Positions 8,386 through 11,755 of a stretch of 11,755 bases of DNA are shown here, piece after piece. The notes beneath the pieces are model-generated. The model was not told where the DNA came from. It worked only from the letters and a program-made list of their open reading frames with translations, and did no database searches. The stretch's first letter is position 1. The number at the start of each line of letters is the position of its first letter. A program made the position numbers and the translations under genes. This stretch comes from a virus: UHGV virus genome UHGV-2173514. The stretch is one strand, 5' to 3'.

Positions 8386-8569
8386 ACTGAATCTCCCGTC
8401 CAAAAGCGCAAATCATGCCATGCAGGCCAGAAACGGCCATTATTTAAAACCTCGGTTTACGAGAACTCGGCACAAGCGGGGAGAAAATACCGTTACTCAG
8501 TACAGCGAATACCTGGACCAATCGACAAACATTCAGCGGTGGCCTTTCTGGGGAACTGTCCGGCAATGC
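8194..8569. repeat. Left arm of a ~376-bp imperfect inverted repeat (partner 11084-11459)
   Basis: The reverse complement of 8194-8569 aligns base-for-base with 11084-11459 at roughly 93-96% identity by eye. It covers the invertase codons 1-64, the invertase upstream region, the gix site and ~105 bp of tail-fibre coding sequence. Confidence 0.85.
8440..8465. other. gix/hix-type invertase crossover site (left)
   Basis: TTATTTAAAACCTCGGTTTACGAGAA matches Mu gixR (TTATCCAAAACCTCGGTTTACAGGAA) at 22/26 positions: two imperfect half-sites around a central dinucleotide at 8452-8453. Confidence 0.8.
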
Positions 8570-9161
8570 CGCTACTGCAACAAAGCTGAAAACAGCACGA
8601 AAAATTGCTGGAGTTGGTTTTGATGGTTCTAGCGATATTTCAATTAGTGCCAAAAATGTCAATGCATTTGCACTCCGACAAACAGGTAATACTGTTAATG
8701 GTGATACATCCGTTGGATGGAATTGGGATAGTGGTGCATATAACGCCATGATTGGTGGTGCATCTGCATTAATTCTTCACTTTAATATAAATGCTGGTAG
8801 CTGTCCTGCCGTACAATTCCGTGTGAATTATAAAAATGGTGGCATTTCCTACAGGTCGGCTCGTGATGGTTATGGGTTTGAATTAGGTTGGTCAGATTTC
8901 TATACCACGACACGAAAACCTTCAGCGGGAGATGTTGGTGCATATACGCGGACAGAATGTAACTCAAGGTTTATTACAGGTATTCGCCTTGGCGGTCTGT
9001 CATCTGTTCAGACATGGAATGGTCCCGGCTGGTCTGACAGGTCAGGTTATGTCGTTACGGGTTCAGTTAACGGAAACCGTGATGAATTAATTGATACAAC
9101 ACAGGCAAGGCCAATTCAGTATTGCATTAATGGGACGTGGTATAACGCGGGGAGTATTTAA
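8448..9161 (+). CDS. Tail-fibre C-terminal variable cassette Sv (5'-partial, no own start)
   Basis: The frame opens right after TAA 8445-8447 inside the gix site: [63 protein letters not shown]... ending ...CINGTWYNAGSI, stop 9159-9161. Homologous to the opposite-strand cassette. The track lists only the part from the first Met (8748). Confidence 0.75.
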   Translation, partial: NLGLRELGTSGEKIPLLSTANTWTNRQTFSGGLSGELSGNAATATKLKTARKIAGVGFDGSSDISISAKNVNAFALRQTGNTVNGDTSVGWNWDSGAYNAMIGGASALILHFNINAGSCPAVQFRVNYKNGGISYRSARDGYGFELGWSDFYTTTRKPSAGDVGAYTRTECNSRFITGIRLGGLSSVQTWNGPGWSDRSGYVVTGSVNGNRDELIDTTQARPIQYCINGTWYNAGSI

Positions 9162-9163
9162 CG

Positions 9164-9697
9164 ATGATGCACTTAAAAAACATTACTGCTGGCAACCCTA
9201 AAACAAAAGAGCAATACCAGCTAACAAAGCAATTTAACATCAAATGGCTTTATTCAGCTGATGGAAAAAACTGGTATGAGGAACAAAAGAATTTCCAGCC
9301 AGACACTTTGAAAATGGTCTATGACCATAACGGCGTTATTATTTGTATTGAAAAGGATGTTTCAGCAATTAATCCGGAAGGCGCAAGCGTCGTTGAATTA
9401 CCTGATATTACAGCAAATCGCCGGGCTGATATTTCGGGGAAATGGATGTTCAAAGATGGCGTAGTGGTAAAGCGAACTTATACCGAGGAAGAGCAGAGGC
9501 AACAAGCGGAAAATGAAAAGCAGAGCCTGTTGCAACTTGTCAGGGATAAAACTCAGCTATGGGACTCACAGCTACGGCTGGGCATCATTTCCGACGAGAA
9601 TAAACAAAAATTAACCGAGTGGATGCTCTATGCGCAGAAAGTCGAATCCACAGACACCTCCAGCCTGCCAGTAACATTTCCCGAACAACCTGAATGA
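9164..9697 (+). CDS. tfa: Tail fibre assembly protein (Tfa, Mu U / P2 G-like)
   Basis: 177 aa, starting 2 nt after the Sv stop. The N-terminus MMHLKNITAGNPKT...[13 protein letters not shown]...PDITANRR...GKWMFKDG is nearly identical to the minus-strand paralog while the C-terminus diverges. Confidence 0.9.
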   Translation: MMHLKNITAGNPKTKEQYQLTKQFNIKWLYSADGKNWYEEQKNFQPDTLKMVYDHNGVIICIEKDVSAINPEGASVVELPDITANRRADISGKWMFKDGVVVKRTYTEEEQRQQAENEKQSLLQLVRDKTQLWDSQLRLGIISDENKQKLTEWMLYAQKVESTDTSSLPVTFPEQPE

Positions 9698-9701
9698 GAC
9701 A

Positions 9702-9728
9702 AGGCCCGATAACGGGCCTTAATTTTTA
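9702..9728. terminator. Terminator hairpin between convergent tfa genes
   Basis: aggcccg (9702-9708) / cgggcct (9713-9719) with loop ataa, followed by taattttta. The stop codons of both tfa genes flank it. Confidence 0.6.
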
Positions 9729-10253
9729 TTCAGGCTTTTGTGGCCATTCAGGATTTGCCGTATCCACACGGTTGACCAGAACACTGTAGCGTTCCCATGC
9801 TTCCAGTCGTGTGCGTTCCTCGTCTGTTGCCATATTCAGCCTGACAGCGCGTTCCAGCGGCTGGATGACTGATTCAGCTTCGGAAAGCAATGCGGCCTTT
9901 TGTGATTCGGCCTGTTGTTGCTGTTCGTCAGCCGTATAAATCCGTTTAACCACAGCTCCGTCCTTAAACATCCACTTACCGGAATCATCGGTCCGACGAT
10001 TGGCCGTTATATCGGGAACCTCGACGACGCTAAAACCTTCGGGATTAAGCGTGGAGGCATCTCTGGTGATGGCGACAATAATATTATTTTCATCGTAAAC
10101 AATCTTTATGGTGTCTGGCTGAAAGTTTTTCACTTCCTCATACCAGTTTTTTCCGTCCTCAGAGTAAAGCCAGATAACTCCGTGTTTCTTTGTTAACTCA
10201 TACTGTTCCAGTGTTTTAGCATTACCCGCTTTTATGTTCTTTAAGTGCATCAT
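9726..10253 (-). CDS. tfa: Alternative tail fibre assembly protein (Tfa')
   Basis: 175 aa, [14 protein letters not shown]...; paralog of the plus-strand Tfa. Starts 1 nt after the Sv' stop. Confidence 0.9.
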
Positions 10254-10254
10254 A

Positions 10255-11205
10255 TTAAACGCTCGCTACATTATACCAGGTGCCATTTATATACTTTTGA
10301 ACGGGTCTGTAATAAACGCCCGCTATATTATCGGCAGAGTTAGACCCTGTATCCTGAACATTAATACCAGACAATACATGACCTGAAGGGCACTGGAAAT
10401 TCCATGTTTGCCAGTTGTTCACTCCATAATATTGCTGTGAACCAAGTCGAACATCTTTCACATAACGGGAATCAAAGTTACCGTAATCCGAGGGGTTAAC
10501 ACGCCCTGTAATATTTATGGTTTTATTACTTTGAATGCTTCCGGAGACAAAGCGCATAACATGGACGTTATTAGCATAAACATCCAGATTACCATCGCCA
10601 TTTTGTTTAAAGCCCGTGTCATTATCACCCAATACAATCGAATTACCGCCAAGAGCACTGGATGTTCCGATACCCAGTGCACCATTCAGTTGACCACCAG
10701 ATAACGGCAGTGCACCAACATCTCCTGCTGAAGGTTTTCTGGTGGTGGTGTAAAATTCGGACCAGTCGGCTTCAAAACCATAACCATCACGGGCTGAACG
10801 ATAAAAAATACCGCCATTTTTATAATTAATCCGAAACTGAGCTGCAGGACAACTTCCGTCTCCCATATAAAAATGAATAATTAACGTTGATGCACCACCA
10901 ATATTTGCGTTATAGGCTCCGCTACTCCAGTTCCATCCAACTGCTTTATCATTCGCAACGGTGCTTCCTGTTTTCCCTAAGGCAAACGCACCAACATGAC
11001 TTGCTTTTAATGTGATATCGGAGGAACCATCAAAAGCCACATTGCTTATTTTCCTGGCAGTTTTTAATTTTGCAGCTGTAGAAGCATTGCCGGATAGTTC
11101 ACCAGAAAGGCCACCGCTGAATGTTTGTCGATTAGTCCAGGTATTCGCTGTACTGAGTAACGGTATTTTCTCCCCGCTTGTGCCGAGTTCTCGTAAACCG
11201 AGGTT
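10255..11205 (-). CDS. Alternative tail-fibre C-terminal variable cassette Sv' (5'-partial, no own start)
   Basis: The minus-strand frame is open from the gix-R site (stop at 11208-11206) through ...[38 protein letters not shown]... to ...[12 protein letters not shown]. The track shows only 10255-11040 from an internal GTG. Confidence 0.8.
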
Positions 11206-11213
11206 TTAGATAA
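11188..11213. other. gix/hix-type invertase crossover site (right, inverted)
   Basis: TTCTCGTAAACCGAGGTTTTAGATAA; its reverse complement differs from the left site at one position. Confidence 0.8.
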
Positions 11214-11243
11214 TGGCGGTTTCTGGCCTGCATGGCATGATTT

Positions 11244-11459
11244 GTGCTTTTGGACGGGAGATTCAGCGTGCTGATTGGCTATGTAAGGGTATCAACAAAT
11301 GACCAGAATACAGATCTGCAACGAAACGCTCTTGTTTGTGCAGGATATGAACAAATATTTGAAGATAAATTAAGCGGAACAAGGACAGGCCGACCTGGAT
11401 TAAAACGTGCTTTAAAGCGCCTTCAAAAAGGTGACGCACTGGTTGTCTGAAAACTGGAC
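11244..11459 (+). pseudogene. Truncated second copy of the invertase 5' end (first ~64 codons, premature stop)
   Basis: Encodes (V)LIGYVRVSTNDQNTDLQRNALVCAGYEQIFEDKLSGTRTGRPGLKRALKRLQKGDALVV, then TGA at 11448-11450 where the intact gene has Trp. Nucleotide similarity to the intact gene ends at about 11460 and no catalytic-domain remainder or HTH follows in any frame. Confidence 0.75.
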
Positions 11460-11755
11460 TGACTGGTTCACTGTATGCGGCATCTTGTCGTGCTGGTGGT
11501 GGAAGCCTAGAAAAAGTATCGGGTGTTACTGAACCGTGTTGATACATCAACTGCACCTGATATTGAGTGGCCTACGAACCCTGTCAGGGAGTAATCATTG
11601 GGATTATGCCGCAGCACGTCTTAAGCAAGAACGTGCTGCGGTTGGATGCTATTTTTTCCCTGAAGCGGAAAACATTACTACAGTACCTTGAACCTTGGTT
11701 TTAACATTCTCGAAATGCTCTGAGAGTATATGTGTTAAGCCTTCTTCGGAATCTT

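Follow-up and report, generated by a model that had tools for sequence, protein, structure and literature searches.

The window analysed here, the whole 11,755-nt stretch of the virus genome UHGV-2173514, contains two tail-fibre tip cassettes with their assembly chaperone genes, and a preliminary description had read these as a two-state host-range switch. The locus raises the question what this element is and whether it could act as a switch in the arrangement found here. We assign 8440-11213, with a probability of roughly 85%, to the invertible Mu-G-type segment carried by the P2-like prophage 'Phi1' (of strain EC958), located beside serS in E. coli ST131, with the join to sequence of a second prophage, Phi4, at its right-hand end being most likely an assembly chimera. 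The two-cassette switch as such has already been published and is the textbook paradigm of the Mu G segment, and the element itself was described for EC958 in 2014.

The segment and its two cassettes

Two 26-bp crossover sites in inverted orientation enclose the segment. Their outer edges are exactly the limits that had been given before (8440-11213), and between them lie two convergent modules of a fibre tip and a chaperone, Sv with Tfa and Sv' with Tfa'. The features of the segment and of the neighbouring invertase gene are as follows:

7786-8403, minus strand: intact gene for a serine DNA invertase of the Gin/Pin/Cin/Hin family (Pfam, PDB, homology to Mu Gin)
8146-8385, minus strand: putative Fis-dependent recombinational enhancer, presumed to lie within the first 240 nt of the invertase gene
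8440-8465, plus strand: left 26-bp crossover site, TTATTTAAAACCTCGGTTTACGAGAA (pattern match; identical to 'Phi1_3prime' of EC958)
8448-9161, plus strand: Sv, fibre C-terminus of the Mu S' type, 237 codons and stop (homology, translation)
9164-9697, plus strand: Tfa (177 aa), tail-fibre assembly chaperone of the Mu U' type, paired with Sv (97% identical to Mu U'; Caudo_TAP)
9701-9720, plus strand: predicted terminator, a GC-rich hairpin followed by a T run (8 pairs, 6 of them G-C; consensus match only)
9726-10253, minus strand: Tfa' (175 aa), chaperone of the Mu U / P2 gpG type, paired with Sv' (90% identical to Mu U)
10255-11205, minus strand: Sv', tip of the P2 gpH / Mu S type, 316 codons and stop (homology, Pfam)
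11188-11213, minus strand: right 26-bp crossover site, TTATCTAAAACCTCGGTTTACGAGAA (pattern match, SNP map, Table 3 of PMC4134206)

Frame translation reproduced the earlier cassette coordinates and codon counts (237 and 316) exactly. The Sv frame is open from 8448 to its stop at 9159-9161 and has neither a start codon nor a constant part upstream, and on the other strand that of Sv' stays open between 11205 and 10258. Sv shares 88% identity with the variable part of Mu S' over 165 aa and agrees with Mu S' (PDB 8JU3) at each of its last 65 positions; its Pfam match to gp37_C (22.0 bits) lies just below the curated cut-off of 22.5 bits. The last 154 aa of Sv' are 87% identical to the tips of P2-type gpH proteins of Peduovirus and 51% identical to the Mu S tip, and this cassette matches gp37_C with 32.9 bits (curated cut-off 22.5) and gp37_trimer weakly. 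The names Sv and Sv', which we keep from the preliminary description, are reversed relative to Mu, Sv being of the Mu S' type and Sv' of the Mu S / P2 H type.

Pairwise alignment, proposed earlier for Sv/Sv' and for Tfa/Tfa', yielded common N-terminal parts and divergent ends for both pairs. Residues 1-165 of Sv and Sv' are 81% identical (E 2e-94), with the first 41 identical, and the final ~70 residues share 36% identity and a common INGTWYN end, so that the shared C-terminal motif and the divergence between the ends were both recovered. The shared N-terminus likewise stood, but what had been called a linker is in fact this 165-residue domain. The extra Gly/Asn-rich stretch ascribed to Sv' appears as an insertion of ~78 residues relative to Sv. 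The cassettes diverge at their tips, and both resemble tail-fibre tips; neither near-identity throughout nor a lack of similarity to fibre tips, the outcomes that had been named as evidence against two alternative cassettes, was found.

Both chaperones belong to Caudo_TAP (PF02413; E 3.6e-37 for Tfa and 4.2e-38 for Tfa'), and Tfa' matches PDB entry 5YVQ_B with E 1.2e-102. They had been described as alike at the N-terminus and unlike at the C-terminus, which agrees with the alignment: the identity is 57% overall (E 1e-74), 72% in columns 1-117 and 28% from column 118 to the end. Tfa' also shares 69% identity with the chaperone encoded after a P2-type gpH, and its C-terminal module is conserved there. 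The chaperone genes begin 2-3 nt past the cassette stops, so that both have what is seen in Caudo_TAP members of the Mu U / TfaMu type, a conserved N-terminal part, a tip-specific C-terminal module and a position directly downstream of a fibre cassette. Across Mu, a P2-type phage and the present window the C-terminal module tracks the type of the tip. As sequence matches, the similarities of cassettes and chaperones and the Pfam hits are not due to chance, and the claim of two receptor-binding cassettes, each with a cognate chaperone, is supported by direct homology to the pairs of the Mu G segment, whose role as a host-range switch has been demonstrated by experiment.

As in segments of the Gin/Cin/Pin type, the ORFs, reading frames and homology define two convergent, promoterless fibre C-terminal cassettes, each with its chaperone gene; a scan for promoter-like sequences gave none upstream of either cassette (1 site against 8 expected). 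The predicted terminator hairpin at 9701-9720 sits between the two convergent chaperone genes. An Rfam search of the window gave no match.

Crossover sites, invertase and inversion

The pattern TTATNNAAWACCTCGGTTTACRRGAA occurs only twice in the window, at 8440-8465 (plus strand) and 11188-11213 (minus strand), with 0 occurrences expected in shuffles. The two sites differ at 1 of 26 positions, are inverted relative to each other and have the same central dinucleotide, TC (8452-8453 on the left, 11200-11201 on the right); they fit the gix/cix/pix consensus and match published sites of Phi1 and Phi4. The left sequence is listed as 'Phi1_3prime' in Table 3 of PMC4134206. The outer half of the right site is of the 'Phi4_3prime' type and not of the 'Phi1_5prime' type that is proximal to the constant fibre part (Sc). 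Inside each site an in-frame TAA precedes the cassette (8445-8447 for Sv and 11208-11206 for Sv').

The product of the neighbouring gene at 7786-8403 is a serine invertase that combines a catalytic domain of the resolvase type (Pfam Resolvase, E 1.5e-50) with a C-terminal HTH (HTH_7, E 4.4e-13); complete genomes annotate it as a protein of 199 aa that starts with GTG at 8385. Its best PDB matches are the Gin structures 4M6F and 3UJ3 (E ~1e-99). With Mu Gin it shares 85% identity, and the YVRVSTNDQ motif at the catalytic serine is part of what is shared. At 8146-8385, 234 of 240 nt (97%) match the 5' end of Mu gin, and the putative enhancer would lie here; an enhancer inside the invertase gene, ~100 bp from a site, is attributed to Kahmann 1985 where that work is cited in PMC3798978.

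The stretch 6918-11204 is identical to strain NR363 (99.93% for 6918-11217), and 7700-11217 is 99.9% identical to complete ST131 genomes. There the next gene codes for an intact tail fibre of 740 aa, and I, J, W and V come after it. Complete genomes and other assemblies contain the segment either way round, with ~108 complete records in the orientation of the window versus ~200 flipped (by coverage thresholds) and with fibres of 661 aa and 740 aa found among the assemblies. In EC958 the 2773-bp segment of Phi1 flips, and PacBio reads from one culture had ~50% in each orientation (Forde 2014, PMC4134206). Homology to the Mu G segment, inverted sites, a Gin-like invertase and occurrence in both orientations together support the pattern of a two-state host-range switch that had been recognised before, and by its sequence 8440-11213 is a homologue of the phage Mu G segment.

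In the intact prophage an Sc of 424 codons lies just outside one crossover site and the Gin-like invertase is encoded beyond the other. We propose that the invertase pairs the inverted sites with Fis bound to the putative enhancer within its own gene, cuts at the central dinucleotide and flips the 2.77-kb segment. In one orientation the fibre is Sc+Sv' (740 aa), which has a tip of the P2 H / Mu S type, and the chaperone is Tfa', of the Mu U type; in the other the fibre is Sc+Sv (661 aa), with the Mu S' tip, and the chaperone is Tfa, of the Mu U' type. The divergent C-terminal module of each chaperone matches its own fibre tip. With two fibre/chaperone states, progeny would carry one of two receptor specificities. 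Mu infects E. coli K-12 in the G(+) state and E. coli C, Citrobacter, Enterobacter, Serratia, Erwinia and Shigella sonnei in the G(-) state (PMC4406740). Given these host ranges and the correspondence of the Sv tip to Mu S', adsorption and host range would probably differ between the orientations of the present segment.

The missing constant part and the join to Phi4

The constant fibre part is absent from the window, which the preliminary description had overlooked: no Sc abuts a site in frame, and both flanks are 5' ends of invertase genes. The stretches 8149-8605 and 11048-11504 form an inverted repeat (89% complementary). Two further features concern this right-hand side:

10905-11204, no strand: 300-bp block shared without mismatch by the Phi1 and Phi4 loci, within which the change from Phi1 to Phi4 lies (SNP map)
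11268-11643, plus strand: remnant of the invertase gene of Phi4, a lambdoid prophage, truncated and decayed (stop at 11448-11450; 97% identical to gin over the first 180 nt)

The remnant at 11268-11643, in which the sequence past the first 180 nt is decayed relative to gin, occupies the position expected for the constant part. According to the SNP map all 34 informative sites in 9939-10904 are of the Phi1 type and all from 11205 onward of the Phi4 type, so the right flank is Phi4 sequence. For 11150-11755 the counterpart in EC958 is 1487827-1488432, with 100% identity, and its annotation is that of a recombinase pseudogene. A distance of ~527 kb separates the Phi4 locus from Phi1 in those complete ST131 genomes that were checked. 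The right-hand cassette of Phi4 is Sv'-like (98% identical by BLAST), which rules out the Sv-like type that gene lengths had suggested. In the canonical prophage the 424-codon Sc is present and runs on into fibres of 740 aa or 661 aa, and the lack of an adjoining Sc is a property of the present assembly of the locus, not of the element. With a TAA before both cassettes and no Sc next to them, neither can be expressed as a fibre as assembled here.

That the switch works exactly as laid out in the window, with both cassettes expressible, is therefore hardly credible. The components of the segment and the invertase gene are all intact, but the TAA in the crossover sites closes both cassette frames, a start codon first becomes available 100 codons further downstream in Sv (ATG 8748) and 55 codons further downstream in Sv' (GTG 11040), each outer flank is the 5' end of an invertase gene in antisense, and the window has neither an ORF for a fibre N-terminal domain nor a promoter-like site upstream of the cassettes. 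Another possibility is that the cassettes serve the host, for instance as an inversion-activated blocker of the adsorption of other phages. There is a precedent in E. coli K-12, where PinQ inverts the e14 P segment to give StfE2, which blocks adsorption of T2 (PMC12529663), and many E. coli prophages carry tail-fibre cassettes and invertases that act in trans. We nevertheless hold a host-serving role to be very improbable, since nothing in the window points to it and the canonical prophage has head-completion, terminase small subunit, lysis, baseplate and tail genes (21.5 kb inspected) and encodes full-length fibres in either orientation, as a host-range switch of the virion needs.

The origin of the join is a separate matter. 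We consider it probable that the join is, in the main, an assembly chimera formed through the 300-bp block common to both loci. Short-read misassembly of ST131 prophages has been documented (PMC4134206), and draft assemblies garble this region; one of them (L009), a candidate for a window-like locus with both cassettes truncated, proved to be a gapped scaffold with duplicated pieces and was rejected as an artefact. A real join of the Sc-proximal region of Phi1 with the invertase-proximal region of Phi4, made by RecA (on the 300-bp block or a looser one of ~1.1 kb) or by the Phi1 invertase, is unlikely, even though several observations agree with it. The change of type falls within 10905-11204, an interval that takes in the central dinucleotide together with the inner half-site, and the outer half-site is clearly of the Phi4 type; an exchange exactly at 11200-11201 is compatible with the first Phi4-type bases only 4 and 7 bp beyond. 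Between the Phi1 and Phi4 sites just 1-2 bases differ, and the Phi1 invertase has been proposed to act in trans on Phi4 sites (PMC4134206), so that enzyme and sites for a real exchange exist. Moreover, Phi4-type loci were seen in both orientations (L015 versus L020) despite the truncation of their own invertase.

Against a real join stands the geometry of the sites, which in every genome checked are direct repeats, ~527 kb apart, so that a single exchange would delete 527 kb of core chromosome. Judged by the K-12 gene map this interval probably holds essential genes, and its deletion should then be lethal. Wild-type invertases of the Gin family are reportedly strongly biased against deletion between direct sites, a result ascribed to Kanaar et al. 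(1988 and 1990), which also counts against it. Inversions alone were rejected as a route to the window layout on topology (three blocks separate the two invertase flanks, which keep the outermost positions); a real join via inversions would need a prior, unrelated inversion that flips Phi4. Finally, none of 5426 complete genomes carries the join. The junction pattern (10890-10915, a gap of 284 nt, 11200-11240) had 0 matches in viral or GTDB contigs, and exact look-ups of Tfa' and of the 60-aa invertase remnant gave only canonical loci, of Phi1 (in both orientations) or of the Phi4 type, none of them window-like, among the 24 matches with the longest contigs. The sole metagenome match to the junction pattern (L003) is a Phi4-type locus with ISEc12 in its Sv'-like cassette and with 'Phi1-type' bases at the few diagnostic SNPs; the pattern is insufficiently specific, so this match is uninformative on the join.

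A genuine exchange between Phi1 and Phi4 over ~527 kb, by a Gin-family invertase or by RecA on the shared cassette DNA, thus appears distinctly unlikely to us. If true, it would mean that the ST131 chromosome had been rearranged between prophages, leaving a tail-fibre switch stripped of its constant part, and it would be direct evidence of long-range chromosome rearrangement via prophage invertase sites in a pandemic E. coli clone. The favoured assembly chimera carries a caution: segments with hundreds of identical bases between prophages can give assembly joins that mimic rearrangements, and such joins leave 'orphan' cassettes that annotation pipelines label as truncated tail proteins.

Relation to known invertible segments

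The closest known system is Phi1 of EC958 (Forde et al. 2014, PMC4134206), which is the same element, with a length of 2773-2774 bp, the same place beside serS, an identical left site (gccaTTATTTAAAACCTCGGTTTACGAGAA) and, from gpU to the right site, 99.9% identity to ST131 genomes. In EC958, and likewise in every complete genome, the second site (TTATCGAATACCTC...) abuts the constant fibre part, whereas the window has a Phi4 3' half-site and flank with the truncated invertase instead. The Mu G segment (S/U, S'/U', Gin) has the same order of invertase, site, tip and chaperone, chaperone and tip, and site, at identities of 97% (U'), 90% (U) and 85% (Gin) and with the S' tip identical over 65 aa. 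It differs in its carrier, a transposable phage in Mu and a P2-like one here, in the S-side tip, which here belongs to the P2 gpH type (87%) and reaches only 51% identity with Mu S, and in the inside of the segment, which here has the common N-terminal part of 165 residues and 508-bp imperfect inverted repeats but 34-bp repeats in Mu.

In P2, gpH and gpG are a fibre and a chaperone that do not switch. The tip of Sv' reaches 87% identity with tips of P2-type gpH, and Tfa' 69% with the neighbouring chaperone. A phage of the P2 type (L025) carries just one, fixed tip; neither a second cassette nor an invertase lies between its chaperone gene and gpFI. The C segment of P1/P7 (Cin), the P segment of e14 (Pin), Min of p15B and the Phi4-type lambdoid segment share the invertase family, the 26-bp consensus and homologous cassettes with the present element, with a nucleotide identity over parts of the segment of 85.7% for P7 and 91% for P1. 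They differ in the constant parts (P1 S, lambda-type Stf) and in the number and make-up of the cassettes. Invertases of the Gin/Cin/Pin family cross-react in trans (PMC4134206, PMC12529663). For proteins near-identical to those encoded in the segment, solved structures are available (8JU3 and 5YVQ).

The invertible segment and its two cassettes

By sequence similarity, the segment carrying the alternative tail-fibre cassettes (Sv and Sv') and their chaperones (Tfa and Tfa') is a homologue of the G segment of phage Mu. Neither the type of element nor this particular prophage segment is new: an invertible 2773-bp segment has been described in Phi1, a P2-like prophage of E. coli strain EC958, inside imperfect inverted repeats of 508 bp that are 77% identical and with site sequences that exactly match those of the window (Forde et al. 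2014, PMC4134206).

Features of the window (genes from the ORF map and genome comparison)
250-390, minus strand: hok/gef
595-855, minus strand: ogr
896-2137, minus strand: gpD
2163-7757, plus strand: tail operon FI, FII, E, T, U
7786-8403, minus strand: serine invertase gene, followed by the switch region
8440-8465, plus strand: 26-bp site TTATTTAAAACCTCGGTTTACGAGAA, gix/pix-like pattern
9701-9720: hairpin and T run between the convergent modules
11188-11213, minus strand: 26-bp site TTATCTAAAACCTCGGTTTACGAGAA, gix/pix-like pattern

The gix/pix-like pattern had just these two matches in the window, where none is expected by chance, and their positions are the segment limits of the preliminary description. 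An inverted repeat (8149-8605 and 11048-11504, 89% complementary) extends beyond the sites and reaches invertase coding sequence on either side of the segment.

The cassette sizes proposed earlier are borne out by open frames of 237 codons for Sv (8448-9158) and 316 codons for Sv' (11205-10258). The two were said to share an N-terminal linker; they do share sequence, but "linker" understates a common part of 165 residues with 81% identity, of which residues 1-41 are identical. Beyond residue 165 they diverge, Sv' having the additional Gly/Asn-rich stretch noted before (~78 residues), and identity falls to 36% over the last ~70 residues, both cassettes ending in the INGTWYN motif as described. 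Tfa and Tfa' (57% identical overall) are indeed alike at the N-terminus and unlike at the C-terminus (72% over alignment columns 1-117, 28% over the C-terminal 60 columns). The Pfam domain Caudo_TAP was found on both chaperones and Resolvase plus HTH_7 on the invertase, while gp37_C scored above the curated cut-off on Sv' and just under it on Sv (22.0 vs 22.5 bits).

The similarity to Mu includes the invertase (85% identical to Gin), Tfa (97% to U'), Tfa' (90% to U; it matches the U chain of the S-U complex 5YVQ, E 1e-102) and residues 73-237 of Sv (88% to the variable part of S'), the final 65 residues of Sv being identical to the S' tip (PDB 8JU3). In contrast, Sv' has a tip much closer to that of P2-type gpH fibres (87% identity) than to Mu S (just 51%), and the C-terminal module of the chaperone that follows gpH in P2-type phage is common to Tfa' but not to Tfa. 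The preliminary labels are thus opposite to those of Mu, its Sv being of the S' type and its Sv' of the S/H type. From the comparisons of Mu, P2-type phage and the window, the C-terminal chaperone module therefore goes with the tip type across three phages, which supports the earlier view that each cassette has a cognate chaperone.

Switching and host range

In assemblies the fibre is 740 aa (Sc+Sv') or 661 aa (Sc+Sv) long, which fits a constant part (Sc) of 424 codons. Approximately 108 complete records have the orientation of the window and about 200 the other, counts that rest on coverage thresholds; in EC958, PacBio reads were about half in each orientation (PMC4134206). As in the Gin/Hin family, invertase dimers at the two inverted sites would assemble with a Fis-bound enhancer (PMC3798978, PMC4406740), the central dinucleotide would be cut and the strands exchanged by subunit rotation, and the flip would join either cassette, with its chaperone gene after it, to Sc in the same frame. 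A putative enhancer would lie at the position of that of Gin, in the first 240 nt of the invertase gene, and the 97% identity of this stretch to gin is suggestive.

The host of Mu G(+) phage is E. coli K-12, and those of G(-) phage are E. coli C, Citrobacter, Enterobacter, Serratia, Erwinia and Shigella sonnei (PMC4406740). With an Sv tip identical to that of S', Sc+Sv would naturally be expected to have G(-) type specificity. The proposed two-state host-range switch is supported by the homology to the Mu G segment and the occurrence of both orientations.

The apparent join between Phi1 and Phi4

Neither tip can be made from the window as assembled: the right flank of the segment is not Sc, an in-frame stop lies ahead of both cassettes, and the ORF map holds no fibre N-terminus in the window. 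Instead, 11150-11755 is 100% identical to EC958 1487827-1488432, where the lambdoid prophage Phi4, located near trp, has a truncated invertase gene next to a methyltransferase gene. The segment is consequently bracketed by two invertase 5' ends, with the decayed Phi4 gene at 11214-11755 (inverted partner 8149-8439), and the outer half of the right site, TAA included, is of the Phi4_3' type. In a three-way SNP map, Phi1 bases were present at 34/34 informative positions in 9939-10904 and Phi4 bases at all informative positions from 11205 onward; the 300-bp block in between is identical in both loci. This Phi4 remnant in place of Sc is the sole unusual feature and most likely has a technical origin.

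We consider the join to be an assembly chimera through the shared 300-bp block, with a probability of roughly 0.7 to 0.75, because of the deletion geometry, the absence of the join from the genomes and contigs searched and the known misassembly of the region. That it is a real recombination product, a rare molecule or the result of a two-step rearrangement, seems unlikely. The switch point would fit an exchange at the central dinucleotide, but it fits any point in the 300-bp block equally well. In EC958, the Phi1 5' site (c961070-961095) and the Phi4 3' site (c1487865-1487890) are oriented alike (PMC4134206). Their relative orientation is the same in five other strains, and a join from the left of one to the right of the other would therefore delete ~527 kb of core chromosome. 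Judging from the K-12 gene map, this interval presumably contains essential genes. No inversion among the four sites can put both invertase flanks on one segment: the flanks keep the outer positions and three blocks separate them, unless Phi4 had first been flipped by an unrelated inversion.

The join was found in no complete genome of the collection searched, where the best single-place coverage of 7700-11755 was 87% and the full-length matches to 9500-11700 were Phi4-type loci (~98.8% identity), and no match to the join pattern came from viral or GTDB contigs. Short-read misassembly of ST131 prophages, with caution on contigs of alternative alleles, was reported by Forde et al. (PMC4134206), and draft assemblies do garble this region. 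For instance, scaffold L009 (GCA_002244545.1, KZ269417.1) has at 7800-11300 the segment, then the flank on the invertase side once more, and duplicated fibre pieces (7877-10055 matches none of the references and is presumably a gap), a concrete case of assemblers mishandling an invertible region.

The one metagenome match to the join pattern, L003 (ERZ505807 NODE-337), was ruled out as an IS-disrupted Phi4-type locus, having an IS21-family ISEc12 inside an Sv'-like cassette (504-3086). In the Phi4 remnant (window 11268-11447, 7119-7298 in locus L002), the first 180 nt are 97% identical to Mu gin, followed by decay; the Gin enhancer maps to this stretch, whose retention may explain continued inversion of Phi4-type segments by invertase in trans. 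Lambdoid Stf loci with the dead invertase near trp occur in both orientations among genomes (locus L015 vs L020 and L024), with a 968-aa fibre and 175-aa chaperone or a 941-aa fibre and 177-aa chaperone, which is consistent with inversion in trans.

Neighbouring genes

The ORF map and the match to complete E. coli genomes show a P2-like prophage adjoining serS, and from gpU to 11217 the window is 99.9% identical to ST131-type chromosomes (e.g. NR363, EC958 and JJ2434). Between serS and ogr lies a 46-aa ORF for a Hok/Gef-family toxin (250-390, minus strand). A Sok-like RNA was not called by Rfam, but N masks the 22 nt next to the ORF. Of the three N runs (410-431, 3785-3819 and 6873-6917) at least two do not preserve length, 35 N and 45 N each replacing 22 nt of NR363, so that the frameshifts seen in the tape-measure gene (T) and near the 3' end of FII, the tube gene, are false; T truly continues in the frame of ORF 6978-7256. 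At ~4914 in T there is a 27-nt in-frame difference from NR363, GCGCTTGCGCGTGTAACGCAGGCTCGT being absent from the window; 3820-6872 is otherwise identical to NR363.

Unlike in P2, ogr and gpD lie upstream of FI on the opposite strand (595-7757), and the orientation of the FI-U operon is opposite to that of the baseplate and fibre genes. This order appears typical of P88/Xuanwuvirus-like relatives, which are also the best phage matches. Within the operon (3928-4466), the gpE ORF (3928-4302) is overlapped by a GpE-family ORF in the +1 frame (4230-4466), an arrangement that matches the E/E' tail-chaperone pair of P2, a product of programmed frameshifting.
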